DNA of 64,000 nucleotides from positions 268-64,267 of the forward strand of contig CAZWMG010000008.1 in the NCBI GenBank assembly GCA_964634945.1. Reading direction: 5' to 3'. The position numbers were made by a program, and so were the translations under genes. Below, piece by piece: positions 6,078 through 47,356 of the stretch (its first letter is position 1; each line of letters begins with the position of its first letter). Below the pieces are notes generated by a model that saw nothing but the letters and a program-made list of their open reading frames with translations, did not search any database and had not been told where the DNA came from. Source of the stretch: an uncultured Planctomycetia bacterium (lineage in GTDB: Bacteria > Omnitrophota > Gorgyraeia > JABMRG01).

Positions 6078-6126
6078 TGAGTTACACTTTGTTCTTTGAA
6101 TTTTTTACGCTTTGGAAAAAGCTCGT

Positions 6127-6474
6127 ATGAGTCAGACAACGCCTATAGTAAGTAAGACCTATGATTTTATTCTTTGGGTTTTACCGAAATTGGCAAAATT
6201 TCCCAAAGACCAAAGGTTCTTGCTGGGAGACAGGATTGAAACAACGTTGCTTGATTGTCTGGAGCTTTTGATTGAAGCAGTATATTCTAAGGAAAAAAGG
6301 AAGGTGTTAAGAGATGTTAACCTTAAACTTGAAAAATTACGGTTTTTATGGCGAATCAGCCGCGATATGCGCTATACCCCTCTCAGAAGCTATGAGTTTG
6401 GCGCGAGAAGTATTAATGAGATTGGTAAAATGGCAGGCGGTTGGATTAAGAGTGAATTACGCCGGAGTCTCTGA
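6127..6474 (+). CDS. avd: DGR accessory variability determinant (Avd), a basic four-helix-bundle protein
   Basis: It occupies the canonical position between target/VR and TR. The motif KTYDFILWVLPKLAKFPKDQRFLLGDRIETTLLDCLELLIEA matches the Avd family, and the protein is small and basic. The ATG at 6127 is preferred over the TTG at 6112 used by the ORF track. Confidence 0.75.
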   Translation: MSQTTPIVSKTYDFILWVLPKLAKFPKDQRFLLGDRIETTLLDCLELLIEAVYSKEKRKVLRDVNLKLEKLRFLWRISRDMRYTPLRSYEFGARSINEIGKMAGGWIKSELRRSL

Positions 6475-6665
6475 GTTTACGGATTCAGAGAGAGGCGCTT
6501 TTGATAAGGAGTCCAGGCCTTGTTTCCCGGCTCAGAAACCTAAGCCAAAAACATCGGAGTACCTTGCGCAGGTAGTAGCGGAAATCAGCGAACCTTGCGC
6601 AGGAAAAAGAAAAAACGTCCTTGATTTAAGAATGTTTAAGGATGGGCGCAAGGTCGAAAAAAGCC

Positions 6666-6791
6666 GGGCATCCGCGGTGGTAGCTGGAACAACGATGCTA
6701 CGAACTTGCGCGTGTCGGACCGTAACAACGCTGGCAACACGAACACGAATCGGAACAACAATTATGGGTTCCGCCCGGCCAGCACTCCTTG
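6666..6791 (+). repeat. DGR template repeat TR (non-coding, rich in AAC codons)
   Basis: 126 bp collinear with both VRs. The sequence aac aac gat gct acg aac ... aac aac gct ggc aac acg aac acg aat cgg aac aac aat tat is adenine-rich exactly at the positions where the VRs vary. The overlapping ORF 6314-6901 is therefore spurious. Confidence 0.85.
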
Positions 6792-6913
6792 TCAAGAGCG
6801 GGAAACAACGTTGTCATTCTGAGCCCGTAAGGCCGAAGAATCTAAATACTGGATTCTTTACTTCGTTCAGAATGACAAGGGAAAAAGCGCTCAGAATGTG
6901 ACAAGAAGATAAA

Positions 6914-7957
6914 ATGAAAACTTACAAGCATTTATTTGAAAAGATTACGAGTTTTGAAAACTTACTGCGCGCCGCAAAACAGGCGCAGAAGGGCAAGAAG
7001 ATGAAACACAATGTTAGTGAGTTCAACTTTGGATTAGAAAGCGAAATCCTAAAATTGCAGGATGAGCTTAAGAACCAGGCCTACAGGCCCGGCCGATATA
7101 GGCATTTTTATGTTAATGACCCTAAGCGCAGGCTAATTTCTGCCGCGCCTTACAGAGACAGGGTCGTGCATCATGCCTTTTGTAATACTATAGAGCCGTT
7201 ATTTGACAGGACTTTTATATTTGACTCTTACGCTTGCCGTGTTGGAAAAGGAACGCATAAAGCTATGAGCAGGTGTCAGGAATTTATAAAGAAAAACAAA
7301 TATGTTTTACAGTGTGATATAAGCAAATACTTTTCATCTATTAACCATGGGGTTTTACTTTCTATTCTTTCCCGAAAGATTAGGGATAAAAAAGTGATGT
7401 GGCTGGCAGAGCTTATTATTAATTCAGCATTAACTGTTAATGGCTTAACAGGCATTCCTATAGGTAACCTGACAAGCCAGTTTTTTGCTAATCTTTATCT
7501 TAATGAGCTGGACTATTTTGTGAAGTTTGACTTAGGTGATAAGTGTTATCTTCGCTATATGGATGATTTCCTGATATTTAGCGAAAATAAACAGCATTTA
7601 CATCAAGCTAAAGAAAAAATTAACCAATTCTTAGAAAGCTTTTTAAAGCTTAATTTGCACCCCAAAAAATCATCGGTATTACCCATAAACTTGGGTGTAG
7701 ATTTCTGTGGTTTCCGGATTTTTAAATATTTACGTAAATTGCGAAAAAGCAATATAATGTTTTTTAAAAAAAGAGCCGTAAAGATGCAGAGAGATTTTTG
7801 CAGGCAGAAAATTAATATAAATAAAATTTCTCAATCTATAAGGGCTTGGGTCGCCCACGCTAACTGGGGAAATACTTATAGGTTGCGCGAAAAAGTAATG
7901 GAGAATTTAATTTTTAGCAGAAGTTATATGAGTACAGAAGATCGGTCTAACAGGTAA
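6914..7957 (+). CDS. DGR reverse transcriptase
   Basis: RT motifs are present in order. The DGR-specific IGNLTSQFFANLYLNELD (I/LGxxxSQ) stands in place of the group II intron QGxxxSP, and the catalytic motif is YMDDFLIF. The gene lies directly downstream of the TR. Confidence 0.9.
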   Translation: MKTYKHLFEKITSFENLLRAAKQAQKGKKMKHNVSEFNFGLESEILKLQDELKNQAYRPGRYRHFYVNDPKRRLISAAPYRDRVVHHAFCNTIEPLFDRTFIFDSYACRVGKGTHKAMSRCQEFIKKNKYVLQCDISKYFSSINHGVLLSILSRKIRDKKVMWLAELIINSALTVNGLTGIPIGNLTSQFFANLYLNELDYFVKFDLGDKCYLRYMDDFLIFSENKQHLHQAKEKINQFLESFLKLNLHPKKSSVLPINLGVDFCGFRIFKYLRKLRKSNIMFFKKRAVKMQRDFCRQKININKISQSIRAWVAHANWGNTYRLREKVMENLIFSRSYMSTEDRSNR

Positions 7958-8003
7958 ACCGGCTAACAGGTTAACCGGCTAACCAGTAGATGAGAGGTTA
8001 AAA

Positions 8004-11000
8004 ATGAATAAGCGACTGATAATAACAGTGATTTTGACAGTAGGAGTAGCCATTACAGGTATCTGGCTTGCCTTTGCGGATCAGTATACAGGCGGCGCAG
8101 GTGATGGCTGGAGTTATTCCCAGTCTCAAGATCTTCAAATGACAGGGCCTGATGTTATTTTTACTTCAGCCGAGGGCAGTGTTGGCCGTTTGGGCCAGGT
8201 GCCTTCAGGTTATTTTATTTCCGATGTTTTGGATACCAATGGCAATTCTACTTTAGGCGTCTTAAGCTGGATAGCGGATTTATCCGCGGGCGGTGAGATA
8301 AAGTTCCGAATAGCGGGCAGTGACGACAACATCACCTGGACCGATTATTTAGGCCCGGACGGCACAGCCGGAACTTATTTTACCTCTTCAGGGGAATCTA
8401 TCCCATCCGCGTTAGATGCTAAGCGTTATTTAAGATACAAGGCCTATCTTACAACAGCAGATTACACGCCTGTTTTAGACAGCGTAAGCATACAGTTTGC
8501 GGATGATAATGAAGCAAAAAGAATAATAAGTGATACCTCTGATAATAATTTTACTATCCAGACAGCCTCTATTGTTACTGCCGATGTTGAGCCTGTAAGC
8601 CTTGTAGCCGGCGTAACAGGAACTGTGGTTGTCTCGTTTACTTCTATTAACCCTATCCCCGCGGATGGCAGCATAGAGGTAACATTCCCAGTAGAATTTG
8701 ACGTAAGCGCGGTAGGAGATACCGCTTCATCATCAACAATGGACGGCTCATTAACAGTAACCGTATCAGGACAGGTGATAACTATTACCCGCAGCGGCGG
8801 TAGTGAGCAGCCGGTTGCATCAGAAAGTTTAACCTTAACCAACATTAAGAATTCCAATACTTCCGGCATAACAGGGACATACCAAATAAAGACTATTCGT
8901 TCTGACGGAAACATTATTGATGAAAAAACAGATGTTTCAGCGTCAACTATTGTATCAGCAGCTACAGCAAGTGTAACGCTTAATGCTCCTGATGATATTA
9001 CAGCAGGAGGAGCAAGAGCGGCCTATACTGTCACTCGTTATGATGAGTTTAGTAATTTAAATGATCAGGGAGCTGAGACATTCTATCTATATACTACATC
9101 ACAAGGACAGAATGTTGGGTTCTATGATGTTGTTTCCGGAGGAAGCGCGGTTACAAGCATAGATGTTGCTGATGGCACATCAGAATCTGATTTCTGGTAT
9201 TATGATGAGTTGATGGGTACATTTACTAATACTATTTCAGAGATCAATTCCGGCGCTGTATATGATGTAGGAGATAGTAGTAGTACAGATTTTGGAGATG
9301 GCACAGCATCTGGTATTGCGGTTTCAGGCTCAGGTTCTAGTGCTGAATTGGCCCTTTTAGCGAAGAACCGTTGTGGGGTGGTTTATGCAACAGATGGAAT
9401 ATATGATACCCCAGGAACTGCTAGAGGCGTTTATGTTTCCGGAAACTACGCTTATGTGGCTGATGATACGAGTGGCTTAAAAATTATTAATATCTCTAAT
9501 CCAGATTTGCCAACTCTAACTGGGACGTATGGTACTGTTGGTAATGCTCGTGGTGTTTACGTCTCCGGCGACTACGCTTATGTTACTAATCAGATTGCCC
9601 TTGAAATTATTGACATCTCCACCCCCTCTTCACCAACCTTGACTGGGAGATACGACACGTCCGGTATGCCAGTAAATGTTCATGTTCTTGGTGATTATGC
9701 CTATGTAGCTGACTGGGGTAGTGGACTTCAAATTGTTGATATCTCTACACCTTCTTCACCAAGTTTGGCAGGAACATGTGATAGTACTCGTGCAGCAGAT
9801 GTCTGTACCTCCGGTAACTATGCTTATGTTGCAGACGATACAAGCGGACTTCAAATTATAGATATTTCAAATCCTGCTTTACCTACCATTGTAGGAACTT
9901 ATGATACTGCTAATAAGGCAACTTGTGTTTATGTTTCCGGAAACTACGCTTATGTGGGTGATTATCAAGATGACTTGGTAGTTATTGACATCTCTAATCC
10001 TTCTTTGCCAAGCCTAGTCGCAACTGTTAATACTACCGGTGAGCCTAACAGCCTATATATTTCAGGTGATTATCTCTATGTTTCCGATTATTATAGAGAT
10101 GTAAAAATAGTAGATATTTCAACCCCATCTTCTCCTTTTGTAGCTACATTAGTAAAAACTGATTCAAATTATCCCCGAGGTGTTTTCGTTGCTAATGATT
10201 ATGTCTATGTAGCTGATGGTACAAGTGGTTTGCGCATCAAGGATATGACAGATTTGACGCCACCTTCTATCATTACATCTTATGATACTTCCAGTAATGC
10301 CTGGGACGTATGTGCTCTAGGTGATTATGTCTATGTAGCGGATGCGGGACATGGCCTGAAAATTATTGATATCTCTACACCTTCTTCACCAGTTTTAACT
10401 GGAACATATGATACGTCTAGTGACGCCCATGGTGTTTATGTTTTATCCGATTATGCCTATGTAGCGGATGGTTCAAATGGCCTCCAAATCATAGATGTTT
10501 CCAGCCCAGCATCGCCAACAAGGACTGGGACCTGTGATACTCCCGGTGACGCACAAAAGGTCTATCTATCTGGCAACTACGCCTATGTTGCTGATGGTTA
10601 TAGTGGTTTACAGGTGATTGATATTTCTGATTTGTCGTCGCCAACCCTAACTGGAACATATGATACTCCTGGTTTTGCCAGAGATGTTTATGTTTTAGGT
10701 GATTACGCTTACGTGGCCGATAATAGCTCTAGTGGTTTACAGATTGTTGATATTACTGATCCATCTTTGCCGAGTGCTGTTGGGTCGTATAATATTAATG
10801 ATGAGGCCCACGGTGTTTATGCCTCCGGCAATTATGCTTATGTAGTTTTTAATGGCGCAGGTTTGCATATTATCGATGTTTCCACGCCTTCTTTGCCGAC
10901 ATTAACTGGAGCGTACGATACTTCTGGCTATGGCAGAGGCGTTTATGTCTCTGGTAACAATGCTTATGTGGCAGATGATGCAAACGGTTTACAGATTATC

Positions 11001-14000
11001 GATATCTCTAACCCAGCCTTACCAGTCTTGGTGGGCATTACGGAAACTCCGGGTAGTGCCAGGGCAGTTTATATTTACGGTATTTATGCCTACGTTGCTG
11101 ATTGGAATTTTGGAATTGTCATTACTGATATTTCAGGCTATTCTTCTTCCGGCACATTTGCATCACGTATCATGGATAGCGCATCAAATGAAACATTTAG
11201 CACTGCTTCCTGGAATGGCGTTGTTCCAGCTGATACTACCTTGACTATCAAGGCCCGCACTTCTGATGATTCAGCAATGAGCGGAGCAACTGATTGGGCG
11301 AGCTGTTCAGAGCTTACAAGTGGTCAGGATATATCAGATGCAACCGGAGTAACAGACACAGATAGGTATATTCAATACTATATTGAGATGGCAACGAGTG
11401 ATGTAACAGCTACCCCGTCTCTAAGTGATATTGCATTTGATTATAGCCGCTCAGCTACAGGTGGTATCTATGATACAGATAGTCTAAATGTTAAACATGC
11501 TGCTTCGAATAAGATAGCATTTACAACAGATATCACAACTCCTCAGAAAGCAGGCGCTGTATTTACTCTGCCGGCTATCAAGGCATTGGATACATATGGT
11601 AATTTATTAAATAATGACTATGGCGCCTCTGCCTATGCAGAGACTATCACAATCAGTTACGCGCTAAGTGGCGCCTCTGATGCCCCGGATGATAATGGAA
11701 CAGACTCGTTTACTACCAATGTAGCCTTTGCCAATGGTGCGTCCACCACCTCTTTAAGTACTATTCTATACAGGGCGCAGGATACAACCGTAACTCCTTC
11801 AACAGAAGCTGCGGGATTAACGGGCCAGACAACAGAGTCTAATTCTATAACAGTAAATCCTGAAACAAAGAACAAGGTAGTATTTACGCAAGAGCCGTCC
11901 GCGACAGGAAAGATAAATTATCCATTGGATACACAGCCTATAGTTGTGATACAGGATGTTTATGGTAACCAGACAGCTGATACAGACGCGATAACTCTGT
12001 ATGACTCGAGTTCAAATGAGGTATATATGGATGCAAGCGGTACATTGTCAGCAGCATCCAATCCTTTATCAGCTACTGATGGACAAGCGGAATTCAGCAA
12101 CCTGGAATACAGTTTGCCAGGTTCTATATATCTGTATGCCGAAACCGCAGGTATTGACGCGGACTTTTCACAGCAGATAGCGCTATCAGTATCATCAACT
12201 TCTACGGTTGATGCGGCGGCAACGCCAGCGCCTGATTTTGATCTTGTACCGACTAATGATGATATAGACCATAGCTTTACTGTATTGAAGTTTAAGATTA
12301 CAGACGCGGGAGTAGATGATACCCCAACCTTGATAGACAGGATAAAGGTAGCCATATCAGGCACAGGCGCAAGCGCCGCTACTGACATAACCTGGGCAGG
12401 CCTGTATATAGGCGAGACCCAAATCACCACTGTTACAGGTGAGGCTATAGCAAATGATTATATAACATTCGGCACTCTTCCGGATGGCGATTCTAACGCT
12501 GACCTTTACAGCTTAGCTGATAACACATCCGAAGAATTTACAGTTTATATTTATATGAAAGACGGAAAACTTACAGCAACAGAGGATGATACATATATCT
12601 TTGATGTTGATGAGACATTGATAGGAGTAGATAGCGGGTTATCGTCTCAAATGGCATCCGATTCCGCAAGCGTAACTCCGGTTACAGGGACCATAGATGT
12701 TACAATCTCTTATATAGAGGCTGTAACGGCTGCCGGAAATGAAGATGTTGAATTAACAGCAGGTATTGGTAATGATATAAAGCTTCGCGGTGTTGATGTT
12801 AATAAGAACGTAGATGAGGATTATATAGGTAACCAGACATTTAAGTTCTCAGGCCTGAACCAGATAGGAGTCTATAAACCTAAGACAGACGCTACTGTAT
12901 TTGGAAACAACAAGACCATTAGTTTTACAGCAGGTGTCTCAGCGACAACGACTCTTACTGCTTACGCAAAAGAGACAGGTACTCTATCAGCCCAGGACCA
13001 GAATCACCTATCTTATGAAACATACGCGCTAAATGTTACTACTGTAGCTGCACAGGGTGATAGTATAGTTCTTACAAGCGGTAACAACCAGTCCGGCGCG
13101 ATAAACGCGGTATTATCACAGGAGTTTATAGCTACTGTATCTGATGCTTATGCAAACCCTGCCACGGGTGAGGTTGTTGAATTTGCGGTAGATACAGCCC
13201 CTAATGGAGCAAGCGGCCAGAGCCTGAGCCAGCCGCAGGATGACACTGACGATGACGGCTTGGCATCTGTTCTCTTTACTCTGGGCAATGTAGCGGGAGA
13301 CTATTTGATTACCGCAACTTGCGGTAGCATAACAGGGTCTCCATTGACTTATACCGCGACAGCTTTAGAGCCTACAGGACTAAATATAGCAAGCGGCAAT
13401 AATCAGGTTGACAAAAAGGTTGCAGAGGATCTTAATCCTTTTGTTGTGGAACATACAGCCTCCGGCGATATACCTGTTCCTAACGTGGATATTGATTTTG
13501 AGATTATAAGTTTTCCTGATGGGGCTACCGGACAGTCATTGTCAGCGTCAAGCGCTACAACCAATTCAAATGGCCAGGCGACGGCCACCCTTACCCTTGG
13601 CACGAAGATAGGCAGTTATGTTGTGCGCGCTAGTGTTGGAGCGTTTAGTGTTGATTTCACAGCGACCGCTCTTCCTGAGACGCCTAATAAAATAATACTT
13701 TCAGGCCCTAGTTCCGTAGCGGCAGGAGGCGTATCAGAAAGCTTTTCAATATATATAAAGGATACATATGATAATTTAAGCGGCGTAACAAGCGCCACCA
13801 CAATTGGTGCGTCGAGTAGCGCAAGCGCTACATCAAGCTTTTATAGCGACTCGCTCGGTGAAAGCCTTCTCGTAGATGATAGTATATTGTTAAGCATTGA
13901 TACCCATAGCGCTACTTTCTATTACAAGGACACGCTGGTTGGCGTTCCGACAGTTACGGTATCTGTAACGAGCGGACAGGCAGGACTGAATACCGATAAT

Positions 14001-18258: not shown

Positions 18259-18999
18259 ATGAAAAAAAGATGGATATTAACAGCTTTAATGGTAATTATA
18301 TTTTCATTCTTAGCGCAGGAGGCGGAATGCGGCATTACCTTAAAGGCCTTGGTGGTAAATCCTTCCAAGACAAAGACGCAGACAGCCCAACTTAAGGCCT
18401 ATCTGCCAAAAGAGGCATCTGCGGACGATGTTATCGATTTGGGGGATTTAAAGATAGACTATGATATTGAGAAAGGCCTTTATTTTGTGCATCAGAAATA
18501 CAAGCTTAAACCGGGAGAGAGTATAAGCCGTGAGATAGAGATAAAAGATGTATGGGTGATATCAAAGGCAGAAATAGATGATCTTACCCGCCAGGCAGCG
18601 GATCTAGCCGAAAGGCTTAAAGGTACAGCCTATTTTAATATGGCGGTTACGTTGCAAAAAGATATTGAAAGCAAGGCGGAAGAGATTATGAATAGGCAGG
18701 AAAAGGCCTTAAATGCCAATCCCCGTGCGCATATAGGCGCCTATAGAAGCAATATGAATACGCTTGATGAGACTACGGCCTCTCTGGCAAAATTAGAGAA
18801 GATGGTCGAAGAGCTGCAGGAAGATAAAGGTTCAGGCTCAGAAAAGATTCACGTTAAGGCCACATGGCGGCTCATTGTAGCCATGGTTGTTGCGTTAGGC
18901 GTTCTCTCATTTATATTCTTTGTCATATGGAATCGTCAGGCTGCGGTAGAAGGAGCCAAGCGCAAAGCTGAGCAAGGTGATAAGAAAATTAGCTTCTAA
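18259..18999 (+). CDS. Hypothetical membrane-anchored protein with an N-terminal signal/TM segment, a coiled-coil middle and a C-terminal TM helix
   Basis: MKKRWILTALMVIIFSFLA at the N-terminus and LIVAMVVALGVLSFIFFVIW near the C-terminus. No recognisable catalytic motifs. Confidence 0.55.
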   Translation: MKKRWILTALMVIIFSFLAQEAECGITLKALVVNPSKTKTQTAQLKAYLPKEASADDVIDLGDLKIDYDIEKGLYFVHQKYKLKPGESISREIEIKDVWVISKAEIDDLTRQAADLAERLKGTAYFNMAVTLQKDIESKAEEIMNRQEKALNANPRAHIGAYRSNMNTLDETTASLAKLEKMVEELQEDKGSGSEKIHVKATWRLIVAMVVALGVLSFIFFVIWNRQAAVEGAKRKAEQGDKKISF

Positions 19000-19067
19000 C
19001 TTTACAAAATAGTGCAATACTCAAAATGTAAAGTTAGCGCTTAACTTTACAAATAGGAAAATAGTGC
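18996..19067. repeat. REP-like palindromic element plus a partial second copy, overlapping the stop codon of the upstream gene
   Basis: ctaactttacaaaatagtgcaatactcaaaatgtaaagttag has 11-bp arms (ctaactttaca / tgtaaagttag). Near-identical copies occur at 40119-40162 and 40583-40626. Confidence 0.7.
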
Positions 19068-19988
19068 ATGGATGTTTCTGACCTGATTAGAAAAGGCAAG
19101 ATTAGCAGGTTATTTCGCGCCAGGAATAAGATCAGTTTTCCCGACGCGATATGTCATATTACCCAGCATGCCGCAGGAAAGGAAAAATTATTTTCAGAAG
19201 ACTCAGATTATTTGTACATGCTGCACCTTCTCAAGGCAGTAGCAGAGAAGTATAAAATCGATATTTTTTCTTTTGCCTTTCTCCCCAACCACTTACACAT
19301 CTTGCTTCAATTATCAGACGACAATCTCTCTTTGGCGATGAAAAGCCTGTTTGAGAGCTATGCTAAGTTTTACAATAATAAATATAACAGGAAAGGCCAT
19401 TTATTCTGCGGCTCATTCAGGCAGGCCCTCTGTTTTAGCGATAGTTATCTTTTGGCCATATCTTTGTATATACACATAAATGCTGTTAAGGCAAGGCTGG
19501 TTAATCGGCCTGAGGATTACCGCTGGTCATCCTGCGCGTTATATTCATCCGCTTTTAATAAAAAGACATTTGTTAACTATAAATTCATTCTAGAGAGCCT
19601 GGATGAGGATTTGGCAAACGCGCGAAAGATCTATTCTGCATTATTGCGTAGCTCAGAAAAGGTAAAAACAGAAGAGGTTAGGGTAGATATCAGGGCATTG
19701 GAATCTTTTAAAACAAGGGCAATGGAGTTTTTTCCGGCTTTAGTAAAGCGTACAGGCAGAGATGCCCCAGGTTTTTTAGAAGATGAGAAATTAGAGGAAG
19801 CGGTGTTGCAATTAAGGCAGATGGGAAGGTTGTCTACTCCTGAGAGCTTTACAGCGCGCAAGAATTTGATTGAGCAACTGAAGGCAAGAGGCTATACAAT
19901 AAAGGTTATAGGCCAAATGCTGGGCATATCCAGACAAGCGATATACAAGACGCTTAAGTTGACAAATTCTGCAATGCACAAAATGTAA
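19068..19988 (+). CDS. REP-associated tyrosine transposase (RAYT; IS200/IS605-like Y1 HUH transposase domain) with a C-terminal HTH extension
   Basis: HUH motif in LPNHLHILL. Family pattern YNRKGHLFCGSFRQ....YIHINAVKARLVNRPEDYRWSS carries the catalytic Tyr. The C-terminal GYTIKVIGQMLGISRQAIYKTLK is a helix-turn-helix. The gene is flanked on both sides by REP-like palindromes. Confidence 0.7.
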   Translation: MDVSDLIRKGKISRLFRARNKISFPDAICHITQHAAGKEKLFSEDSDYLYMLHLLKAVAEKYKIDIFSFAFLPNHLHILLQLSDDNLSLAMKSLFESYAKFYNNKYNRKGHLFCGSFRQALCFSDSYLLAISLYIHINAVKARLVNRPEDYRWSSCALYSSAFNKKTFVNYKFILESLDEDLANARKIYSALLRSSEKVKTEEVRVDIRALESFKTRAMEFFPALVKRTGRDAPGFLEDEKLEEAVLQLRQMGRLSTPESFTARKNLIEQLKARGYTIKVIGQMLGISRQAIYKTLKLTNSAMHKM

Positions 19989-20056
19989 ACTTAAGCGTTA
20001 AGTTGACAAATTCTGCAATGCACAAAATGTAAACAAAATGTAAAGTTAAGCGTTAA
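19953..20056. repeat. REP-like direct repeats overlapping the RAYT stop (aagttgacaaattctgcaatgcacaaaatgtaaac x2 plus aaaatgtaaagttaagcgttaa)
   Basis: Tandem copies are visible. They share the aaaatgtaaagtta core with the REP at 18996. Confidence 0.65.
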
Positions 20057-20102
20057 TTTAGTGGCTGAATTAGGATTTAGTGGTTGATTTAGAATTTCGT
20101 AT

Positions 20103-20993
20103 ATGATAAAATTTTACACAGGAGATGATATTATATATAAAATCGGCTTATCCTGCTTATCCGCAGGTATATCACGGGCAAGTCTGCCTGTTTTAAAGCA
20201 AGTAAGCTTAAGGTATAGGGCTAAGATAACGGCAATCTTAGTTATTATGCTATCTTTCGTTATTTTATCTCCTGGTAAAAGCCTTTGCGCGCAGGATGAA
20301 GAGCATAGCGTCAGGAAGAGTAAACATTTTATTGTATATTATAGTGAAGTACCGACAGCATACGCTAGCAAGGTAACCAGAAGCGCGGAGCATTATTACA
20401 AGAGCATTATTAATTATTTAGGCTTTAACAGGTTTAACTTTTGGACATGGGAGAAACGCTGTAAGGTTTATCTATATCCTACTCAAGAGCGATATCAGGA
20501 GGCAACGGACGCGGAGCCCTGGTCAACAGGACGAGTACACGTTACCAAGAAGGAGATATCTACTTATGCGGGGAAGGAAGAGTTCCTAGATTATACGCTT
20601 CCTCATGAGATGGGGCACATAATATTTAGAGAAGCCATAGGAACCGATAAGAGCCTGCCTCTATGGATAGACGAAGGCGTAGCGACATTACAGGAGAAGG
20701 ATAGAGAGAAATACCTGCTAACCGCCAAGATGCTTGTAAAGGAAAAGAACTTTATACCATTAAGCGAGCTCTCGAGTATTAGAGGCTATGATGAGATTTC
20801 GCCGGCTCTTTTTTATAGCGAGTCAGCCAGTATAATGGAGTTTTTAATAGAGAAATTTGGCAAGCGAAAATTTGTTTTATTCTGCCACCGTCTTCGAGAC
20901 GGGGAAGGATGGCAAGAGGCGTTATTGCGTACGTATAAGTTTGAGAATTTGGAAGCATTAGAGCGGGCATGGGTAGAGAGTGTGACAGGTTAG
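20103..20993 (+). CDS. Putative zinc metallopeptidase (HExxH; peptidase-MA-like) with an N-terminal TM/signal segment
   Basis: LPHEMGHIIFREA carries the HEMGH motif, followed by a downstream Glu in WIDEGVATLQE. Hydrophobic N-terminal region ITAILVIMLSFVILSP. Confidence 0.55.
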   Translation: MIKFYTGDDIIYKIGLSCLSAGISRASLPVLKQVSLRYRAKITAILVIMLSFVILSPGKSLCAQDEEHSVRKSKHFIVYYSEVPTAYASKVTRSAEHYYKSIINYLGFNRFNFWTWEKRCKVYLYPTQERYQEATDAEPWSTGRVHVTKKEISTYAGKEEFLDYTLPHEMGHIIFREAIGTDKSLPLWIDEGVATLQEKDREKYLLTAKMLVKEKNFIPLSELSSIRGYDEISPALFYSESASIMEFLIEKFGKRKFVLFCHRLRDGEGWQEALLRTYKFENLEALERAWVESVTG

Positions 20994-21167
20994 ATACTAG
21001 ATGCTGGATACTAGATACAAGTAATTTGTATTGTGTATTGAGTGATGCGTATTGCGAAAAATCTTAATGCTATACCTGCCTGCCGGCAGGCAGGCGCGCA
21101 ACGCACGACGCATAACGAAATAAAGGTACAAGGGATAAGTGCAAAAGATAAAGAGGAGATAGGGCAG
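20994..21167. repeat. Composite intergenic repeat element: heptamer tandem, GTATTG octamers, a conserved ~60-nt block and a perfect 20-bp palindrome
   Basis: Heptamer tandem TAGATAC TAGATGC TGGATAC TAGATAC directly after the stop codon. Octamer repeats gtattgtgtattgagtgatgcgtattgcg follow. The block ...aaaaatcttaatgctata...cgcacgacgcataacgaaataaaggtacaagg is also present at 32738-32829. The palindrome cctgcctgccggcaggcagg sits at 21075-21094. Confidence 0.6.
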
Positions 21168-25259: not shown

Positions 25260-26123
25260 ATGTTTAAATTAAATATGTTACGCAAGGAATTGATTTTTAA
25301 TCAGGACATAGGTGATATAATCAATGTCTTAAAAGGTGTTGCCTCTTCCGAATTTTATCGTCTCCAGAAGGAAAAGAAAAGTTTTGATGAATTTCTGGAT
25401 TATCTCCAGAGATTTTTTAGTATGGTAGATACTACAGGTTTGCGCCATCTTTTATTGGATGATTCTTCTTTGCCACAGGCCTTGGTGCTTATAACATCTG
25501 ATCTGGGTTTTTTGGGAAAGCTCAATGTATCTGTGGTCAATACAGCTTTAGAACAATCCTCAAAAGATGATGAATTGATCGTTGTTGGCAAGCAGGGCAT
25601 CAGATATATAGAGGAGTCAGGCAGAAATTTTACCGCTTTTGAAGGTATCACAGACGAAGTAGAATACAAAGAGGCGGATAAGCTGGCAGATTGTGTTCTT
25701 AAGGGTATTCTGGATAAGAAGTTTTGTAGAACCACTATAATATATCCACACTTTATATCATTTGCTGTTTGGAAAGTACAAACCTATCAGCTTTTTCCGT
25801 GCAGATTTTTATTCCAGGCAGGCACAAAGTCTGGACAGAAGCATGAGGAAGGCAGTATTATTATTGAACCAACTTTAGCAAAGATAGCAGAACGCTTGAT
25901 AAAGATATGGATAAATTATACCTTATACGGGATTTTTTGGGAAAGTAAACTTTCCGAGTGGGCAACGCGCGTTATGCACTTGGAAGGCAGTACGCATGAG
26001 ATTAAACAGATGAACAAGAAATTGCGTTCTCAATATTTTCGTCTTATACATGAAATTAGTGATAAGAATATAAGAGAAATTTTTGCGGCTAGACTTGCCT
26101 TGGAGCAAGAAGCGGTAGCGTGA
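25260..26123 (+). CDS. atpG: F1 ATP synthase gamma subunit
   Basis: Sits between alpha and beta. The N-terminal helix LRKELIFNQDIGDIINVLKGVASSEF and the C-terminal helix IREIFAARLALEQEA are typical of gamma. Confidence 0.7.
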   Translation: MFKLNMLRKELIFNQDIGDIINVLKGVASSEFYRLQKEKKSFDEFLDYLQRFFSMVDTTGLRHLLLDDSSLPQALVLITSDLGFLGKLNVSVVNTALEQSSKDDELIVVGKQGIRYIEESGRNFTAFEGITDEVEYKEADKLADCVLKGILDKKFCRTTIIYPHFISFAVWKVQTYQLFPCRFLFQAGTKSGQKHEEGSIIIEPTLAKIAERLIKIWINYTLYGIFWESKLSEWATRVMHLEGSTHEIKQMNKKLRSQYFRLIHEISDKNIREIFAARLALEQEAVA

Positions 26124-26172
26124 TTCTAGATACTAGATTCTGGATGCAAGATGCTAGGCATAAGGAGCAAGA

Positions 26173-31984: not shown

Positions 31985-32703
31985 ATAACCCTGTTGAAGT
32001 TTCCATGCCATACTTTGCGCGAAAGAAGAATTACGCGTTTACATTAATAGAGATCCTTGTAAGCGTAACCATAGTTTCTTTGGTAGGTGTAGCGCTATAT
32101 TCTATATTCGCAAATGGGATAAACGCCTGGCGCAAGGGCAGCGAAAATAAAGACTATGCGCGAAAGATAAGACTTGTCTCCGAAAAGATGACCGGTGAGA
32201 TAAGAAATGTCTTTGAATTCTCTATGATCGCTTTTGAGGGTGAAGAAGATTTTTTTATGTTTCCGGCCCTGATACCGACAACAGAGGATCAAGACGGGGA
32301 TATGATTACAGAATATTCTCAGGTAGGAAGAATAGCGTATTTTTATGACAATAAAAAAGACGCGTTTTGCAAAGAAGTTAGGACCTTGCCTGAGGCCCTT
32401 AATGAAGAGGAGATAGGTGACGGCGAGGTGCTGATAGAAGGCGTTAGCGGATTAGAAATAAATTATTGCTATCTTGATAACTTATCAGGTGAATATAAGT
32501 GGAAAGAAGACTGGAACAAGGAAGAACAGGATAGCATGCCACAGGCGTTAAGTGTCAAAATCTCTTTTAAGAAAGACGTAATGAAGAATGATGAGTTTAA
32601 TAAAACAGTATTTATTCCAATGGGGACGGGCGAGCAAAAAATGGACGCAGGTAGCGTTACACAGCAAATAGAAGAAGATGGGGTAGATGATGATGGATAC
32701 TAG
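31981..32703 (+). CDS. Minor pseudopilin (GspJ/GspH-like)
   Basis: N-terminal NYAFTLIEILVSVTIVSLVGVAL methylation motif and TM helix. Confidence 0.6.
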   Translation: MNNPVEVSMPYFARKKNYAFTLIEILVSVTIVSLVGVALYSIFANGINAWRKGSENKDYARKIRLVSEKMTGEIRNVFEFSMIAFEGEEDFFMFPALIPTTEDQDGDMITEYSQVGRIAYFYDNKKDAFCKEVRTLPEALNEEEIGDGEVLIEGVSGLEINYCYLDNLSGEYKWKEDWNKEEQDSMPQALSVKISFKKDVMKNDEFNKTVFIPMGTGEQKMDAGSVTQQIEEDGVDDDGY

Positions 32704-32829
32704 ATACTGGATGCTGGATGCAAGAAGAAAGGTTACAAGTAATTCGTATTGCGTGATACGTGATGTGTATTGCAAAAAATCTTAACGTTATATGCACGAC
32801 GAACGACGAAACAAAGGCACAAGGTCAAT
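32692..32829. repeat. Composite intergenic repeat element, paralogous to 20994-21167
   Basis: Heptamer tandem TAGATAC TGGATGC TGGATGC after the stop, then gtaattcgtattgcgtgatacgtgatgtgtattgcaaaaaatcttaacgttatatgcacgacgaacgacgaaacaaaggcacaagg. It lacks the 20-bp palindrome insert. Confidence 0.6.
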
Positions 32830-33855: not shown

Positions 33856-33915
33856 TAAAGGTACAAGGATAAAGTGCTAGATACTGGATACTAGATGCAA
33901 GATGCTGGATTGTTC
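33856..33915. repeat. Heptamer tandem repeat TAGATAC TGGATAC TAGATGC AAGATGC TGGATTG preceded by taaaggtacaaggataaag
   Basis: It lies immediately after the gspK stop. The leading taaaggtacaagg matches the 3' end of the element at 21122-21140. Confidence 0.55.
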
Positions 33916-38443: not shown

Positions 38444-40123
38444 ATGAAACAGCCGAATGTAATATCGAATTTTATAACAGAGATTATCGACAAAGACCTT
38501 AAGGCCGACAAATATGGCGACAAGGTTTGTACGCGTTTTCCGCCGGAACCAAACGGGTATCTACATATAGGACACGCTAAATCTATATGTTTGAATTTCA
38601 GTCTCGCCGCTTGGTACAAGGGTCTTTGCAATCTTCGCTTTGACGATACTAATCCAAGCAAGGAAGAGCTTGAATACGTAAAATCAATTGAAGCGGATGT
38701 TAAGTGGTTAGGCTTTGATTGGCAAGACCGGATTTTTTATACATCGGATTATTTTGATAAGCTTTATGAATTCGCCGTTAGCCTTATCAGGGCTGAAAAG
38801 GCGTATGTCTGCGATCTTAATTCCGAACAGATGCGAGAGTATCGCGGCACATTGACAGCGCCGGGGAAGATAAGTCCCTATCATAACCGATCGATAGAAG
38901 AAAACCTGGATCTTTTTAAGCGCATGAAAGAGGGTGAGTTTGAAGATGGCTCAAAGGTCTTACGCGCTAAGATAGATATGGCGCATCCTAATATTGCGAT
39001 GCGAGACCCGGCGATATACCGGATAAAAAAAGAGTCTCACCACAGGACTGATAACAAGTGGTGCATTTATCCTATGTATGATTTTGCGCATTGTTTATCG
39101 GATTCGATAGAGAAAATAACTCACTCCACATGCACATTGGAGTTTGAGAATAACCGCCCGTTGTATGACTGGATACTCGATGCCCTAAACGTTTACCATC
39201 CGCAGCAGATAGAGTTTGCGCGTTTAAACTTAAGCTATACTATTCTTAGCAAGCGCAAGTTGATAGAACTTGTAAAGGGAAAATATGTAAATGGCTGGGA
39301 CGACCCTCGTATGCCCACTATATCAGGGTTAAGAAGGCGGGGTTACACACCAAGTTCAATAAGAAACTTTTGCGCCGAGATAGGTGTTTCAAAAGTAAAT
39401 AGCCTTATAGATATTGTGGTTTTAGAGAATAGCCTGCGTGAAGAGTTGAACAAAAGCGCCCCTCGCGCAATGGCAGTTTTGAAGCCTCTTAAGGTAACAA
39501 TCACAAATTATCCGGAAGGGAAGGAAGAAGAACTTATTGCTATTAATAATCCCGAGGATGAAAATGCCGGCACAAGAAAGATACCTTTTTCCCGTACATT
39601 ATATATTGAGCAGGATGATTTTCAGGAAATTCCTTCGAAAAAGTTCTTTCGCTTGGCCCCTGGTAGAGAGGTGCGTTTACGCTATGGATATTTTATCAAG
39701 TGCGAGGAGGTAATAAAAAATCCAAATGGCGATATAGTGGAGCTTAGATGCAGCTATGATCCAGAAACCCGCGGCGGCGACGCGAAGGATGGCCGTAAGG
39801 TAAAGGCGACTCTGCATTGGGTGTCAGCATCGCATGCGCTTAAAACTGAGGTACGGCTTTACAATCATCTATTTTTGAAACCAAATCCTGATGATGTGGT
39901 TGAGGGCAAAGACTTTAAATCAAACCTAAATCCGGATTCTTTACAAACGATCTACCCTGCTTATGTAGAGCCGAGTTTAAAAAATTCAAAGCCAGGCGAT
40001 TCATACCAATTTGAAAGGCAGGGCTATTTTTGTATTGATAAAGACTCATCAAAAGAAAGACTCGTCTTTAATCGTACAGTGGCCTTGCGTAATACCTGGG
40101 CCAAGATATCTAAAAAGGCCTAA
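38444..40123 (+). CDS. glnS: Glutaminyl-tRNA synthetase
   Basis: [23 protein letters not shown] carries the class I HIGH motif in the GlnRS context. ILSKRKL supplies the KMSK-type motif. Size and domain order match GlnRS. Confidence 0.9.
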
Positions 40124-40162
40124 CTTTACAAAAAAGTGCAATACTCAAAATGTAAAGTTAGG
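40119..40162. repeat. REP-like palindrome (copy 2) overlapping the glnS stop codon
   Basis: cctaactttacaaaaaagtgcaatactcaaaatgtaaagttagg. Together with the upstream aaaaagg it forms a 51-bp perfect direct repeat with 40576-40626. Confidence 0.7.
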
Positions 40163-40208
40163 ATTATACTTGCTTAGAAGTACGAGTAACTTACGCACTT
40201 ATTTTGTA

Positions 40209-40237
40209 TTGACATTATATAGTCCTATATGTTTAAA
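40209..40237 (+). promoter_or_regulatory. Candidate promoter (TTGACA-N17-TTTAAA) upstream of the thi leader
   Basis: Only the hexamers are visible, and the -10 element is weak. Confidence 0.25.
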
Positions 40238-40242
40238 TAACA

Positions 40243-40528
40243 GAGAAAAGGAAGGGGAGGCCATAATAGGGCCTGAGAGTTCTGCTAATAGCAGATTACC
40301 CATAGAACCTGATCCACCTTTACTTTTTACAATAGCAGATATTGTTTTCAAGCCAAGGTGGACTCGCTGCTTTCGGTGTTCGGTATCAGATGATAGGTTA
40401 TCGCAAAGATTTGTGTTGCCACAAACGATAACCGAATATTAAAAACCAATAACCGAGAAAGCGGGTCTGGATAATGCCAGCGCAGGGAGGATAATATCTT
40501 ACCCATGCTTTCGGCATGGGTTTTTTGC
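40243..40528 (+). ncRNA. TPP (THI-box) riboswitch-like leader with an atypical ~165-nt insertion or duplication, ending in an intrinsic terminator
   Basis: THI-box elements are in the expected order: ggggaggcc...CTGAGAg...tACCCataGAACCTGATCca at 40255-40316 and gggtCTGGATAATGCCAGCGcAGGGAgg at 40463-40490. The terminator cccatgctttcggcatgggTTTTTT lies at 40502-40526. The leader sits upstream of thiE. Confidence 0.5.
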
Positions 40529-40582
40529 GTTAACAAGAACGATTTTTGTTAAAGACAATATACCCTGAGGCACCCAAAAAGG

Positions 40583-40626
40583 CCTAACTTTACAAAAAAG
40601 TGCAATACTCAAAATGTAAAGTTAGG
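40583..40626. repeat. REP-like palindrome (copy 3) just upstream of thiE
   Basis: Identical to 40119-40162. Confidence 0.7.
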
Positions 40627-40640
40627 TAAAATGAGATAAA

Positions 40641-41291
40641 ATGAATAATATAAGAAGCTATAATTTGTATCTAGTCTTAAGTTCGGAATACACGAACAGA
40701 AGGCCTATTTTAGATGTAGCTAAACAGGCAGTTGTCGCGGGTGTTGATATTCTACAGATGCGCGAGAAAGGTATGTCTGAAAAAGACTTGCTGACGCTTG
40801 GTAAAGACTTGCTATCATTGTGTAGGGAATTTAATACTACCTTTATTGTAAATGATAGTCCGTATTTAGCGAGAGATTTGAATGCGGATGGTGTTCATTT
40901 AGGGCAGGAAGATATTAAGAGGTGCCCACTTTTAAACGCGCGAAATATAATAGGGCAGGGCAAGATAATAGGTATCTCTACACACTCGATAGAAGAATTC
41001 AGGAAAGCCAATTCTGAGGATTTTGATTATATAGCTTTTGGCCCGATATTTCCGACAAAGACAAAAGATTATTGCATAGGAGCAGATGAGATAGATGAGG
41101 TGCTTGACATCACTAGTAAGCCAGTGATATTTATCGGTGGGATTAATATAGAGAACGTTGGTTTGCTCTTGGATAAGGGCGCAAAAAATATAGCAGCGAT
41201 ACGTGCTATTGTCGGATCTGATGATGTTGCCGGCGCGATAGATAGTTTCAGGAAAAAGATCAACTCATATAATACAGAGATAAGAGCATGA
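40641..41291 (+). CDS. thiE: Thiamine-phosphate synthase
   Basis: YLVLSSEYTNRRPILDVAKQAVVAGVDILQMREKG and the ThiE TIM-barrel pattern. Lies in the thi cluster. Confidence 0.85.
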   Translation: MNNIRSYNLYLVLSSEYTNRRPILDVAKQAVVAGVDILQMREKGMSEKDLLTLGKDLLSLCREFNTTFIVNDSPYLARDLNADGVHLGQEDIKRCPLLNARNIIGQGKIIGISTHSIEEFRKANSEDFDYIAFGPIFPTKTKDYCIGADEIDEVLDITSKPVIFIGGINIENVGLLLDKGAKNIAAIRAIVGSDDVAGAIDSFRKKINSYNTEIRA

Positions 41292-41488
41292 TATTAAGGA
41301 TAAACGGAGATGATGAGAATATCGTCAAGTGCGATAACCTTTTAGAGCTTATTAACGCTAAAAAGCTAAAAATAGACAGAATAGTAGTGGAGCATAACCG
41401 CAAGATTGTTCTTAAGCAAGACTGGTCCAGGGTTGCATTAAATGAAAATGACAGCATAGAGATAGTCAGCTTTGTAGGAGGGGGATAA
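41288..41488 (+). CDS. thiS: Sulfur-carrier protein ThiS
   Basis: 66 aa ending ...VSFVGGG with the C-terminal Gly-Gly. Overlaps thiE (ATGA). Confidence 0.8.
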
Positions 41489-41489
41489 C

Positions 41490-42266
41490 ATGGAAGATGT
41501 TTTACGTATTGCCGGTAAAAGCATAAAAAGCAGACTTTTTATAGGCACGGGAAAATTTCCAGATAAGGCTATTGTGCGAAAGGTGCTTGAAGCAGCTCAT
41601 GCGGATGTTGTTACAGTTGCCCTAAGAAGGGTTGATATGGGTTCTGTTGATGAGAACATCCTGGATCATGTGCCCGAAGGCTGTGTAATAATGATTAATA
41701 CATCAGGCGCAAGAGACGCGGATGAAGCGATAAGAATGGCCCGGCTTGGAAAGGCAATGGGGTGTGGCGATTGGATCAAGATAGAAGTTATACCGGATAA
41801 CAAGTATCTTTTGCCTGACAATATAGAGACCTTGAAGGCTACAGAGATTCTGGTAAAGGAAGGCTTTACGGTTCTTCCGTATATGAGCCCTGATCTTAGT
41901 ATTGCAAAACGCCTTGTAGGAGCCGGAGCTGCCGCTGTAATGCCCTTAGGTTCTCCCATAGGAAGCAACAGGGGGCTAAAGACAGAAGAGCTTGTACGAA
42001 TAATGGTAAGTGAGATAGATATTCCTGTAATAGTGGATGCCGGTATTGGATGGCCGTCTGAGGCGGCAGCATGTATGGAGCTTGGCTGTGACGCTGTTTT
42101 GGTAAATACAGCTATCGCTACAGCGGATAATCCGATAGCTATGGCAGGTGCTTTTAGTTGTGCGGTTAGCGCGGGCAGAATGGCGTATTTAAATAGTGGT
42201 ATAGCTGCAAACGAATCCGCAAACTCATCCTCACCCCTTACAGGGTTTTTAAGGGATGTCAAATAA
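41490..42266 (+). CDS. thiG: Thiazole synthase
   Basis: [19 protein letters not shown] and the ThiG TIM-barrel motifs ([26 protein letters not shown]). Confidence 0.9.
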
Positions 42267-42281
42267 AAGAGCACTTAAATT

Positions 42282-43385
42282 ATGAGTTTTATCAATTTGA
42301 TTAAAAAATATGAATCCGCTGAATTGAGCAAGAGGATAGATTCTGTGCTCAAGAAAGATATAGAACAGCTTCTCTCCAAGGATACATTGACTTCGATGCA
42401 GTTTCTTTCACTTCTTTCTCCGGCTGCTTCTTGTTGCCTTGAAGAGATGGCAAAAAAAGCTCACAAGATTACCTTGCGAAATTTTGGAAAGGCTATACAG
42501 TTATATACGCCAATATATATATCTAACTACTGCGATAATAATTGTATCTATTGTGGATTTAATATAAATGGAAAAAGCCCCAGAAAAAAGCTTACTATGG
42601 ACGAGCTTGACATCGAGGCACGATATATCGCGGATACAGGCTTAAAGCATATACTTATCCTTACAGGTAGCTCCAAATCAAAAAGTCCCCTCTCATACAT
42701 AAAAGATTCTATAAAGGTGCTAAAGAGATATTTTAGCTCTATATCCATAGAGATCTATCCATTAACAGAAGATGAGTATGGAGAGCTTATAGAAGAAGGC
42801 GTAGACGGACTTACAATATATCAAGAGACATATAATAGGACTATCTATGATAAGGTTCATCTTAAAGGGCCTAAGAAAGATTATGCCTTCCGTCTTGATT
42901 CAGCGGAAAGAGCCCTGAATAAGAAAATGAGAACAGTTAGTGTAGGAGCCTTGCTCGGCCTAGGCCAATGGCGAGAAGATGGTTTTTTCGCCGGCTTACA
43001 CGCGAAATATCTCCAGGATAAATTTCCAGAGGCGGAGATAGCTATATCGGTACCACGGATAAGGCCCCAGACAGAAGAGTATAGCCCGCAATATGATGTC
43101 TCAGATAGAGACATAACACAGCTTATACTGGCGTTAAGGATTTTTTTACCAAGAATAGGCATCACCCTCTCGACGAGAGAAGGTCAGGGCCTGAGAGATA
43201 ATATTCTACCGTTAGGCATTACCAAGATATCAGCGAACTCCACCACTGTTGTCGGTGGCCATACATTGAATAAACCGGAAGAGGCTACTGAGCAGTTTTC
43301 TACAAGCGACAAAAGGAGTGTGGCAGAGATAAAAGAATTTTTACTAAGTCGAGGGTATCAGCCGATTCTGAAAGACTGGGTCTAA
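42282..43385 (+). CDS. thiH: Radical SAM 2-iminoacetate synthase (tyrosine lyase)
   Basis: CDNNCIYCGF carries the CxxxCxxC motif. Size (~367 aa) and context between thiG and thiF fit ThiH. Confidence 0.75.
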   Translation: MSFINLIKKYESAELSKRIDSVLKKDIEQLLSKDTLTSMQFLSLLSPAASCCLEEMAKKAHKITLRNFGKAIQLYTPIYISNYCDNNCIYCGFNINGKSPRKKLTMDELDIEARYIADTGLKHILILTGSSKSKSPLSYIKDSIKVLKRYFSSISIEIYPLTEDEYGELIEEGVDGLTIYQETYNRTIYDKVHLKGPKKDYAFRLDSAERALNKKMRTVSVGALLGLGQWREDGFFAGLHAKYLQDKFPEAEIAISVPRIRPQTEEYSPQYDVSDRDITQLILALRIFLPRIGITLSTREGQGLRDNILPLGITKISANSTTVVGGHTLNKPEEATEQFSTSDKRSVAEIKEFLLSRGYQPILKDWV

Positions 43386-43453
43386 TCAGGGGACACTCCT
43401 AAAGGGGGCACCCTTAAGCACAAATAATGTAGAAATCTATTAATTTTTAAAAT

Positions 43454-44059
43454 ATGTTTATTAAAACAAAAAAAAGAAAAAAAGAGACCAACGGCGCGAT
43501 TAAGGGCGCCCCCTTAATAGGCATAGCCGGCTGTGGGGGGATAGGCTCTAACTGCGCTTCTAATCTTGTACGAAGCGGTTTTACTAAATTTAGGATAGTA
43601 GATTTTGATGTTGTGGAGAAATCGAACCTGAACAGGCAGTTCTTTTTTTTGGACCAGATTGGCATAGCAAAGGTGAATGCCTTAGAGGTGAATCTGAAAA
43701 GAATAAACCCTGAGATAGAGATAGACGCTATCCAGCAAAGGCTAACCCGTTTAAACGCAGCAAAAGTTTTCGCTGATTGCAGTATTGTGGTAGAGGCGCT
43801 TGATGAAGCAAAAGAGAAGAGTATGCTTGTATCGAGCATCTTAAATAAGGCAAAGCTTATAGTTACAGCTTCGGGCGTAGCAGGGTTTGGGGATTCGGAT
43901 AAGATACGCGTTAAAAAAATAAAGGAAGACCTTGTTCTCGTCGGAGACCTAAAGACGGGGATAGATAAGGCGCCACCGCTTTCTCCAAAGGTCAACATAG
44001 CGGCGGCAAAGCAGGCGGATGTTGTATTGGAATACGTGTTAAGAGGATCTGTATCGTGA
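43454..44059 (+). CDS. thiF: ThiF/MoeB-family E1-like adenylyltransferase
   Basis: GIAGCGGIGSNCASNLVRSGFTKFRIVDFDVVEKSNLNRQ carries the Rossmann GxGxxG motif and the ThiF-family signature. Confidence 0.75.
   Translation: MFIKTKKRKKETNGAIKGAPLIGIAGCGGIGSNCASNLVRSGFTKFRIVDFDVVEKSNLNRQFFFLDQIGIAKVNALEVNLKRINPEIEIDAIQQRLTRLNAAKVFADCSIVVEALDEAKEKSMLVSSILNKAKLIVTASGVAGFGDSDKIRVKKIKEDLVLVGDLKTGIDKAPPLSPKVNIAAAKQADVVLEYVLRGSVS

Positions 44060-47269: not shown

Positions 47270-47356
<87 letters not shown>

Follow-up and report, generated by a model that had tools for sequence, protein, structure and literature searches.

A putative TPP riboswitch upstream of thiE with an aptamer interrupted by a nested pair of hairpins, and the recurrence of such inserts among related riboswitches

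In a 64,000-nucleotide stretch of contig CAZWMG010000008.1 (assembly GCA_964634945.1, GTDB Omnitrophota; hereafter the window, whose numbering is used throughout), the spacer between glnS and thiE (40112-40640) carries a leader in which the aptamer of a presumed riboswitch for thiamine pyrophosphate (TPP) is interrupted by 153 nucleotides (nt). On its 5' side lies glnS, encoding glutamine--tRNA ligase (38444-40123, plus strand; NCBIfam TIGR00440, E = 8.6e-228, and open reading frame [ORF] list). On its 3' side, in agreement with an earlier sequence-only reading that had placed a TPP-riboswitch-like leader upstream of thiE, follows the thiE-thiS-thiG-thiH-thiF operon (40641-44059, plus strand), composed of thiE (40641-41291), thiS (41288-41488), thiG (41490-42266), thiH (42282-43385), and thiF (43454-44059). 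NCBIfam matches identified thiE, thiS, thiH, and thiF, while thiG was assigned via Pfam PF05690 on the identical gene in a Logan contig. Similarity of the thiE and glnS products places the source organism among the uncultivated Candidatus Omnitrophota. A sigma-70-type promoter likely lies upstream of the aptamer on the same strand (40209-40238), with TTGACA (40209-40214), an 18-nt spacer, and TTAAAT (40233-40238). It was not listed by a simple scan; both hexamers and their spacing are kept in the homologous leader of a related contig, L147. The spacer also holds two copies of a repetitive extragenic palindrome (REP), which are described below.

The THI-box elements were found on the plus strand in the canonical order, as had been proposed, divided between a 5' part at 40254-40313 and a 3' part at 40467-40488, both supported by partial Rfam matches, folds, and the family alignment. 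The 5' part (GGGG...CUGAGA...ACCC...GAACCUGAU(C)) comprises the 5' strand of helix P2 (40254-56), P3 (40258-74), the joining segment J3-2 with CUGAGA (40273-78), P3a (40281-95), the 3' strand of P2 in ACCC (40299-301), J2-4, and the 5' strand of P4, CCUG (40308-11), and it ends with the A and U of the J4/5 bulge (40312-40313), immediately 5' of the insert. The 3' part (CUGGAUAAUGCCAGCGCAGGGA) continues with P5 (CUGG, 40467-70, paired with CCAG, 40477-80) and its loop L5 (AUAAUG), the CG of J5/4 (40481-82), and the 3' strand of P4 (CAGG, 40483-86), followed by a terminal GA; intact relatives read CCUG-AU-CUGG at the corresponding place. Between the two parts lie 153 nt (40314-40466), somewhat less than the separation of ~165 nt estimated from the letters. 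Thus, the suggested large insertion in the P4-P5 region was correct as to region, while J2-4, named as a possible site, gives way to the J4/5 bulge of the pyrophosphate-sensor arm.

A covariance search with Rfam RF00059, on which the sequence-only reading had staked its TPP assignment, returned no match in the leader at the gathering score (54.3 bits), and under permissive filters gave two half-matches of 25.1 bits (E = 0.011, 40243-40329) and 19.1 bits (E = 0.34, 40364-40505), a borderline outcome that was settled by comparative evidence. The failure to reach the gathering score is explained by the 153-nt insert, and that score is an operational criterion for a TPP riboswitch rather than a biological one. 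Comparison with thiE leaders that lack the insert, also proposed earlier, showed relatives that are contiguous and near-identical to both aptamer parts: the intact Omnitrophota relatives L008, L012, L013, and L018 carry a contiguous aptamer just 5' of thiE, with Rfam scores of 58.7 to 66.9 bits, and their alignment puts the interruption between CCUG-AU and CUGG-AUAAUG-CCAG. When 110 intact subfamily aptamers were made into a sequence profile, the window aptamer scored 83.2 bits against it once 40314-40466 was excised (members' 5th percentile, 80; median, 92.5), compared with two separate matches of 49.9 and 23.3 bits for the unexcised sequence. Moreover, 52 of the 53 columns conserved in at least 95% of the 110 intact relatives are retained, including CUGAGA, ACCC, CCUG, UAAU, and CG. 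In Escherichia coli thiM, U39-A43 of J3-2 recognize the pyrimidine ring, U59, G60, C77, and G78 recognize the metal-bound pyrophosphate, and the L5 loop docks on P3 (PMC3764141). The positions retained in the window cover the counterparts of thiM U39-A43, U59/G60, and C77/G78 and the docking L5.

Folding was in line with this alignment, since P2, P3, P3a, P4, and P5 were all predicted for the excised aptamer, and the canonical helix order P2, P3(/P3a), P4, P5 was also recovered in the fold of the full leader. P1 comprises only ~4 bp; it is nonetheless stronger than in 77% of the intact members, the median P1 duplex energy of the subfamily being -0.8 kcal/mol. A weak P1 is the subfamily norm and was thus discarded as a sign of decay. 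Read as sequence, the leader is one complete TPP-type aptamer split by a nested insert.

The insert consists of two hairpins on the plus strand, namely, hairpin A (40314-40361, 48 nt, CCACCUU...AAGGUGG), supported by folds and a homologous hairpin in L147, and hairpin B (40362-40466, 105 nt, basal stem ACUCGCU/AGCGGGU), supported by folds and the alignment with L147. The strong extended hairpin GGTTATCG...CGATAACC recognized by the sequence-only reading was found at 40396-40433 as the apical portion of the longer hairpin B (GGUUAUCG...CGAUAACC). When the insert is folded by itself, it forms exactly two hairpins without an intervening nucleotide. The minimum free energy (MFE) fold of the whole leader (40225-40530; z = -5.0 versus shuffles) contains P2, P3, P3a, a long-range P4, A, B, P5, and the terminator; these hairpin predictions are thermodynamic. 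The long-range P4 (40308-11 with 40483-86) closes a junction holding hairpins A and B and P5. Because two abutting hairpins occupy J4/5, P4, A, B, and P5 would meet at a four-way junction, at which only the normal bulge nucleotides AU and CG are unpaired in the predicted fold. A permissive Rfam scan of 40050-40700 revealed no credible other RNA family nested in the insert, yielding beyond the TPP half-matches only a terminator look-alike. Hairpin A was also considered as a switching element, its 5' strand acting as an anti-P4 partner of GCG.AGGGAG, and this candidate was rejected, given duplex-energy z scores of about -1 to +0.6 versus shuffles in eight of nine cases; L016 alone stood out (z = -2.3).

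To place the split aptamer among its relatives, metagenome contigs were scanned with a pattern for the P3a/P2' part only, a sample that is blind to the insertion site. Among the ~120 aptamers of this census, 107 were contiguous, 8 carried a J4/5 insert (about 29 to 104 nt), and 3 carried an insert on the opposite strand of the internal loop, in J5/4, between CG and the 3' strand of P4. Two further J4/5 inserts occur in the reference genomes L016 and L019, bringing the total to 10 independent contigs besides the window, next to three contigs with inserts in J5/4. Inserts are present in about a tenth of the related riboswitches. All 14 inserts fold as exactly two hairpins with a linker of 0 to 2 nt (MFE z, -3 to -8), a fold adopted by only about 7% of shuffled insert sequences, with a range of 4 to 11%; the 14 cases are only partly independent, some being related by descent. 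The insert sequences are unrelated between most contigs, and a search of the 64-kb window and of 0.92 Mb of fetched DNA for further copies of the 14 found none. The insert-bearing aptamers are followed by a conserved terminator, and the genes 3' of them are thiE, thiS-thiG, or a Thi4-type thiazole synthase gene. None of the 13 insert-bearing aptamers examined was detected at the Rfam gathering threshold, and in L087 Rfam finds only its second, intact aptamer.

Some of these loci show features of their own. A common subtype is formed by the inserts of L087 (reverse strand, from 3827), L111, and L158, in which basal stems covary and 3x3 internal loops are conserved: hairpin A runs from a 6-bp stem through a UAY/UWC 3x3 internal loop to a GCCC stem, and hairpin B from a 6-bp stem through a GAA/GAA 3x3 internal loop to a GCYC stem. 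A single aptamer in L111 (4700-5000) carries two-hairpin modules in both J4/5 and J5/4, so that six helices converge on one junction.

The relatives nearest to the insert-bearing aptamers in core sequence are mostly intact, and some pairs differ by the module itself. L107 and L157 have near-identical promoters, aptamers, and terminators and are separated by a clean 65-nt indel that equals a two-hairpin module, with CG at both bounds; L075 and L118 are likewise set apart by a clean indel, that of a 29-nt module. The L147 leader is ~85% identical to that of the window from the promoter into hairpin A and 97% identical over the 3' part, while its hairpin B measures 31 nt versus 105 nt (a difference of ~74 nt), and the basal pair of hairpin A, C-G in the window, is U-A in L147, a compensatory change. 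From this change and the length difference together, it follows that the module has been kept as a structure while its length is labile. In our reading, the hairpin pair is an expansion module that recurs within this riboswitch subfamily and is labile in evolution. In the full-text literature searched, whose incomplete coverage leaves absence unproven, no description was found of J4/5 or J5/4 insertions in TPP aptamers or of a hairpin-pair rule. As a separate observation, an element of ~55 nt (GCAGAAAGCAACACACCCGC...hairpin) follows the riboswitch terminator of L107 (reverse strand), with no equivalent in the near-identical L157; in L087 and L115, the terminator is again followed by similar sequence.

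Downstream of the window aptamer, an intrinsic terminator (ACCCAUGC-uuucg-GCAUGGGU plus U6; 40501-40527, plus strand) was recognized by a terminator scan and a family-wide analysis of the expression platform. Its 9-bp stem (40501-40521) starts 13 nt past the aptamer and is followed by a T run (40522-40527), so that the clean terminator expected at the end of the leader was recovered with a small shift in coordinates (from 40502-40526). A hairpin with a U run was present within 140 nt downstream of 103 of 125 subfamily aptamers, and in 56 of these the terminator 5' arm is CCCUUAUGC. Across the family, pairing to the aptamer 3' strand (GCG.AGGG) is significantly stronger for this arm than for shuffled ones (mean, -8.6 versus -6.3 kcal/mol; Wilcoxon P = 2e-15), and the same was seen for the window (-8.8 versus -5.4 kcal/mol). 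We infer that an antiterminator can form between the terminator 5' arm of the window and the GCAGGG of its aptamer 3' strand. The leader has the context expected of TPP riboswitches, being a 5' leader of thiamine genes with a platform conserved across the family.

The 51-bp perfect direct repeat that had been reported to bracket the leader was confirmed as two plus-strand copies with 100% identity, REP1 (40112-40162; palindromic core at 40119-40162 with a 12-bp stem and a 20-nt loop) and REP2 (40576-40626, between the terminator and thiE). In the 64 kb of the source genome covered by the repeat analysis, the 44-nt palindrome occurs in three copies plus variants, against 0 expected; the third copy, with three mismatches, lies at 18995-19038, where none would be expected by chance. 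It adjoins a gene for a REP-associated tyrosine transposase (RAYT) of 306 amino acids, Y1 type, with a C-terminal helix-turn-helix (19068-19988, plus strand), which is flanked on its other side by tandem variants at 19954-19990, 19998-20034, and 20033-20059, all in direct orientation. The RAYT matched Pfam Y1_Tnp (E = 4.9e-8, 33.6 bits versus a cutoff of 23) and covered the full NCBIfam REP_Tyr_transpos profile (E = 2.1e-17), with 63 bits falling under the 80-bit cutoff. Since this gene is flanked by the same palindromes, the REP label given to the 51-nt repeats is justified. Logan contigs with an identical thiE all break within REP2.

REP positions seem to coincide exactly with stop codons. 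The TAA stop of glnS (40121-40123) lies within the 5' arm of REP1; at 40119-40123 and 18995-18999, respectively, the TAA stops of glnS and of an ORF at 18259-18999 fall in the REP 5' arm (CTAAC), and in L147 (reverse strand, ~2495-2560) a different REP variant covers the glnS stop. The first 7 nt of REP2 (40576-40582, AAAAAGG) are the same as those of REP1 (40112-40118), where they are the final glnS codons and are conserved in relatives without this REP; for this reason, REP2 looks like a copy of the glnS-end REP together with its flank. Nothing corresponding to REP2 was found between glnS and thiE in the L147 leader. In L006, L007, and L011, glnS and thiE are syntenic without a leader between them, which may have been lost there, possibly by recombination between flanking repeats, or gained by the lineage of the window and L147. 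The glnS stop of L007 overlaps the thiE ATG (2995-3003), while the 66-nt glnS-thiE spacer of L006 (1680-1748) carries a different perfect palindrome; the corresponding region of L011 is at ~647-727.

Considering the aptamer, its platform, and its recurrence together, we judge it likely that 40209-40527 is a promoter and leader with a TPP riboswitch that switches transcription off and carries a hairpin pair in J4/5, and that the flanking REPs came later and are unrelated to the split. The leader is probably a functional, transcription-terminating TPP riboswitch. By analogy with the family, bound TPP would hold P4 and P5 together and sequester the aptamer 3' strand, so that the terminator at 40501-40527 could form and transcription would stop. 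When TPP is lacking, the GCAGGG 3' strand would pair with the terminator 5' arm CCC(A)UGC to form the antiterminator, and the polymerase would read into thiE. The hairpin pair would fold out of the way, with A stacking on B and with P4 and P5 keeping their coaxial stack, and the 153 extra nucleotides may delay completion of the aptamer during transcription.

Several observations pull in the other direction. No Rfam match reaches the gathering score; the insert lies 2 nt from G60, a nucleotide contacting the pyrophosphate and metal, and could impair binding; the antiterminator helix of the window is short, a bulged one of ~6 bp; the length of hairpin B is unusual beside the 31 nt of L147 and could reflect a recent expansion not yet purged; the stacking argument at the four-way junction is an inferred one; the census covers one sequence-defined subfamily; and the MFE folds of the split leaders L016 and L019 lack the canonical P4, so that single-sequence folding alone is not decisive. 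Some of these points would suit a dead riboswitch, in which the insert has inactivated the aptamer and left a decaying relic, with thiE expressed constitutively or controlled by the terminator only. The sub-threshold Rfam half-matches, the position of the insert beside the pyrophosphate-binding nucleotides, and the weak P1 agree with such a relic, as do the closest leaderless relatives (L006, L007, and L011), which get by with no riboswitch between glnS and thiE. Under decay, however, 52 of 53 near-invariant positions would not be expected to remain intact, the promoter and terminator are preserved, a weak P1 is usual in the subfamily, and the split architecture is kept 5' of thiamine genes in 13 other contigs as well as in the L147 leader with its ~85% identity and compensatory change. 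The disrupted riboswitch that the sequence-only reading had listed among its options is accordingly quite improbable. A selfish origin, with the hairpin pair being a small REP-like element or miniature inverted-repeat transposable element that is tolerated without a role in a permissive site, would account for the clean indels between almost identical riboswitches (65 nt in L107 versus L157; 29 nt in L075 versus L118), for the scatter of inserts among intact relatives, for their palindromic character in a genome with an active-looking RAYT/REP system, and for the labile hairpin length (31 versus 105 nt). Against it, none of the 14 inserts recurs in the fetched contigs (0.92 Mb) or the 64-kb window, the inserts resemble neither REPs nor, except by descent, each other, they occupy always the same two phosphodiester positions and always as two hairpins, and in one subtype the UAY/UWC and GAA/GAA internal loops are conserved and the stems covary. 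We regard this origin as unlikely.

Two further explanations, raised wholly or in part by the sequence-only reading, concern how the split arose. The leader might combine two recombined or tandem partial aptamers, the 3' half having degenerate 5' elements of its own marked by a second GAGA, and in the 19.1-bit Rfam match the full-length model is indeed aligned with 40364-40505. Only P5 and the 3' strand of P4 align well there, however, the P2/P3 portion showing mismatches and a skipped block of 55 nt. The second ccGAGAaa...gcggg that had been pointed out is there as sequence (40452-40465), but is not a second J3-2 motif, since this stretch (GAGAAAGCGGG) is the 3' strand of hairpin B paired with 40362-40378. 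CUGAGA/ACCC and P5/L5 occur in the leader in one set each, and removal of 40314-40466 yields a single normal member of the family, which leaves partial aptamers hardly credible. REPs, in turn, could have mediated a rearrangement that made the split, or the leader could have arrived as a REP-flanked cassette. It does lie between two identical direct REPs, resembling the ends of IS200/IS605-type elements, REP2 contains 7 nt of glnS 3' coding sequence and thus appears to have been copied from REP1 with its flank, and L006, L007, and L011 have glnS-thiE without the leader. Nevertheless, the homologous split leader of L147 lacks REP2 and is accompanied by just one REP, of a different variant, the other split aptamers occur in non-REP contexts without such flanking repeats, and the insert boundaries are 150 to 200 nt from either REP. 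A role of the REPs in the split is thus very improbable, and the idea of a REP-flanked mobile regulatory cassette is undermined by the L147 leader; the REPs are later additions at transcript-end positions, unrelated to the split.

The window was also compared with known systems. The canonical TPP riboswitch (THI element, RF00059; E. coli thiM, PDB 2GDI) has the same conserved nucleotides and helices as the window, with P2, P3, P3a, J3-2 UGAGA, ACCC, P4, P5, L5 UAAU, and J5/4 CG in common, the same position 5' of thiamine genes, and the same terminator/antiterminator logic. It differs in that the P4/P5 internal loop is contiguous in the described examples that we found, whereas that of the window is interrupted by 153 nt forming two hairpins; furthermore, canonical members score at least 54.3 bits, compared with 25 for the window, and the P1 of the window is very weak, like that of its whole subfamily. 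Tandem TPP aptamers occur in Bacillus anthracis tenA as two complete aptamers in series, and such tandem riboswitches likewise have extra aptamer-like sequence in the leader, whereas the window has one aptamer with a nested non-aptamer insert. The recognized optional element of TPP riboswitches is P3a (Barrick and Breaker 2007, PMC2258182). Variable insertions of this kind (PMC2258182) are, like the present inserts, nonconserved stable stem-loops at a fixed site that leave the aptamer core intact, while the present ones lie in J4/5 (J5/4 in three contigs) and form an abutting hairpin pair (14 of 14) rather than a single stem-loop. With REP/RAYT systems (REPtrons), the window shares the 44-nt palindrome, the flanked Y1 (IS200-like) transposase gene, and copies at gene or transcript ends. 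This likeness extends to the flanking repeats only and not to the aptamer insert, and the RAYT of the window remains below the NCBIfam equivalog cutoff (63 versus 80 bits).

Elsewhere in the window, a tRNA-Leu(GAG) (47270-47356, minus strand) is the sole Rfam match at the gathering level. A 7-nt unit, CTRGATR, forms short plus-strand arrays of four to five copies (20986-21022, 26122-26158, 32696-32732, and 33873-33909), with 13 matches to a 15-mer in the window versus 1.6 expected by chance. In addition, 838-2252 and 4876-8111 contain a block duplication, some stretches of which recur at 100% identity after 4038 nt (e.g., 1151-1450 at 5189-5488), and coding repeats with a period of 126 nt run through 9395-11102.

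Overall, contiguity is the one criterion of sequence and context in which the leader departs from a TPP riboswitch, and its Rfam score falls short as a consequence. Given that the 13 insert-bearing aptamers examined all fall below the gathering score, thiamine regulons in Omnitrophota-like genomes are underannotated, and a state that tolerates insertions at J4/5 and J5/4 needs to be built into covariance models. Large helical insertions can be hosted by the most conserved, ligand-sensing internal loop of a very well studied riboswitch, and, as it seems, only as hairpin pairs, which suggests a geometric rule whereby an even number of extra helices preserves the stacking of P4 and P5; such a rule is testable and may be of use in RNA engineering. 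As a more tentative possibility, toward which we lean little, the paired-hairpin module could be a functional add-on and a distinct structural class, forming a four-way junction (six helices in L111) in the pyrophosphate-sensor arm right beside G60 or G78. If so, it could tune ligand affinity or phosphate selectivity, set the cotranscriptional folding window, or dock a second factor, and its repeated precise gain or loss between near-identical riboswitches would represent the retuning of individual thiamine operons. Near-identical riboswitches that differ by a clean module indel are natural matched pairs in which the effect of such expansions may be measured.

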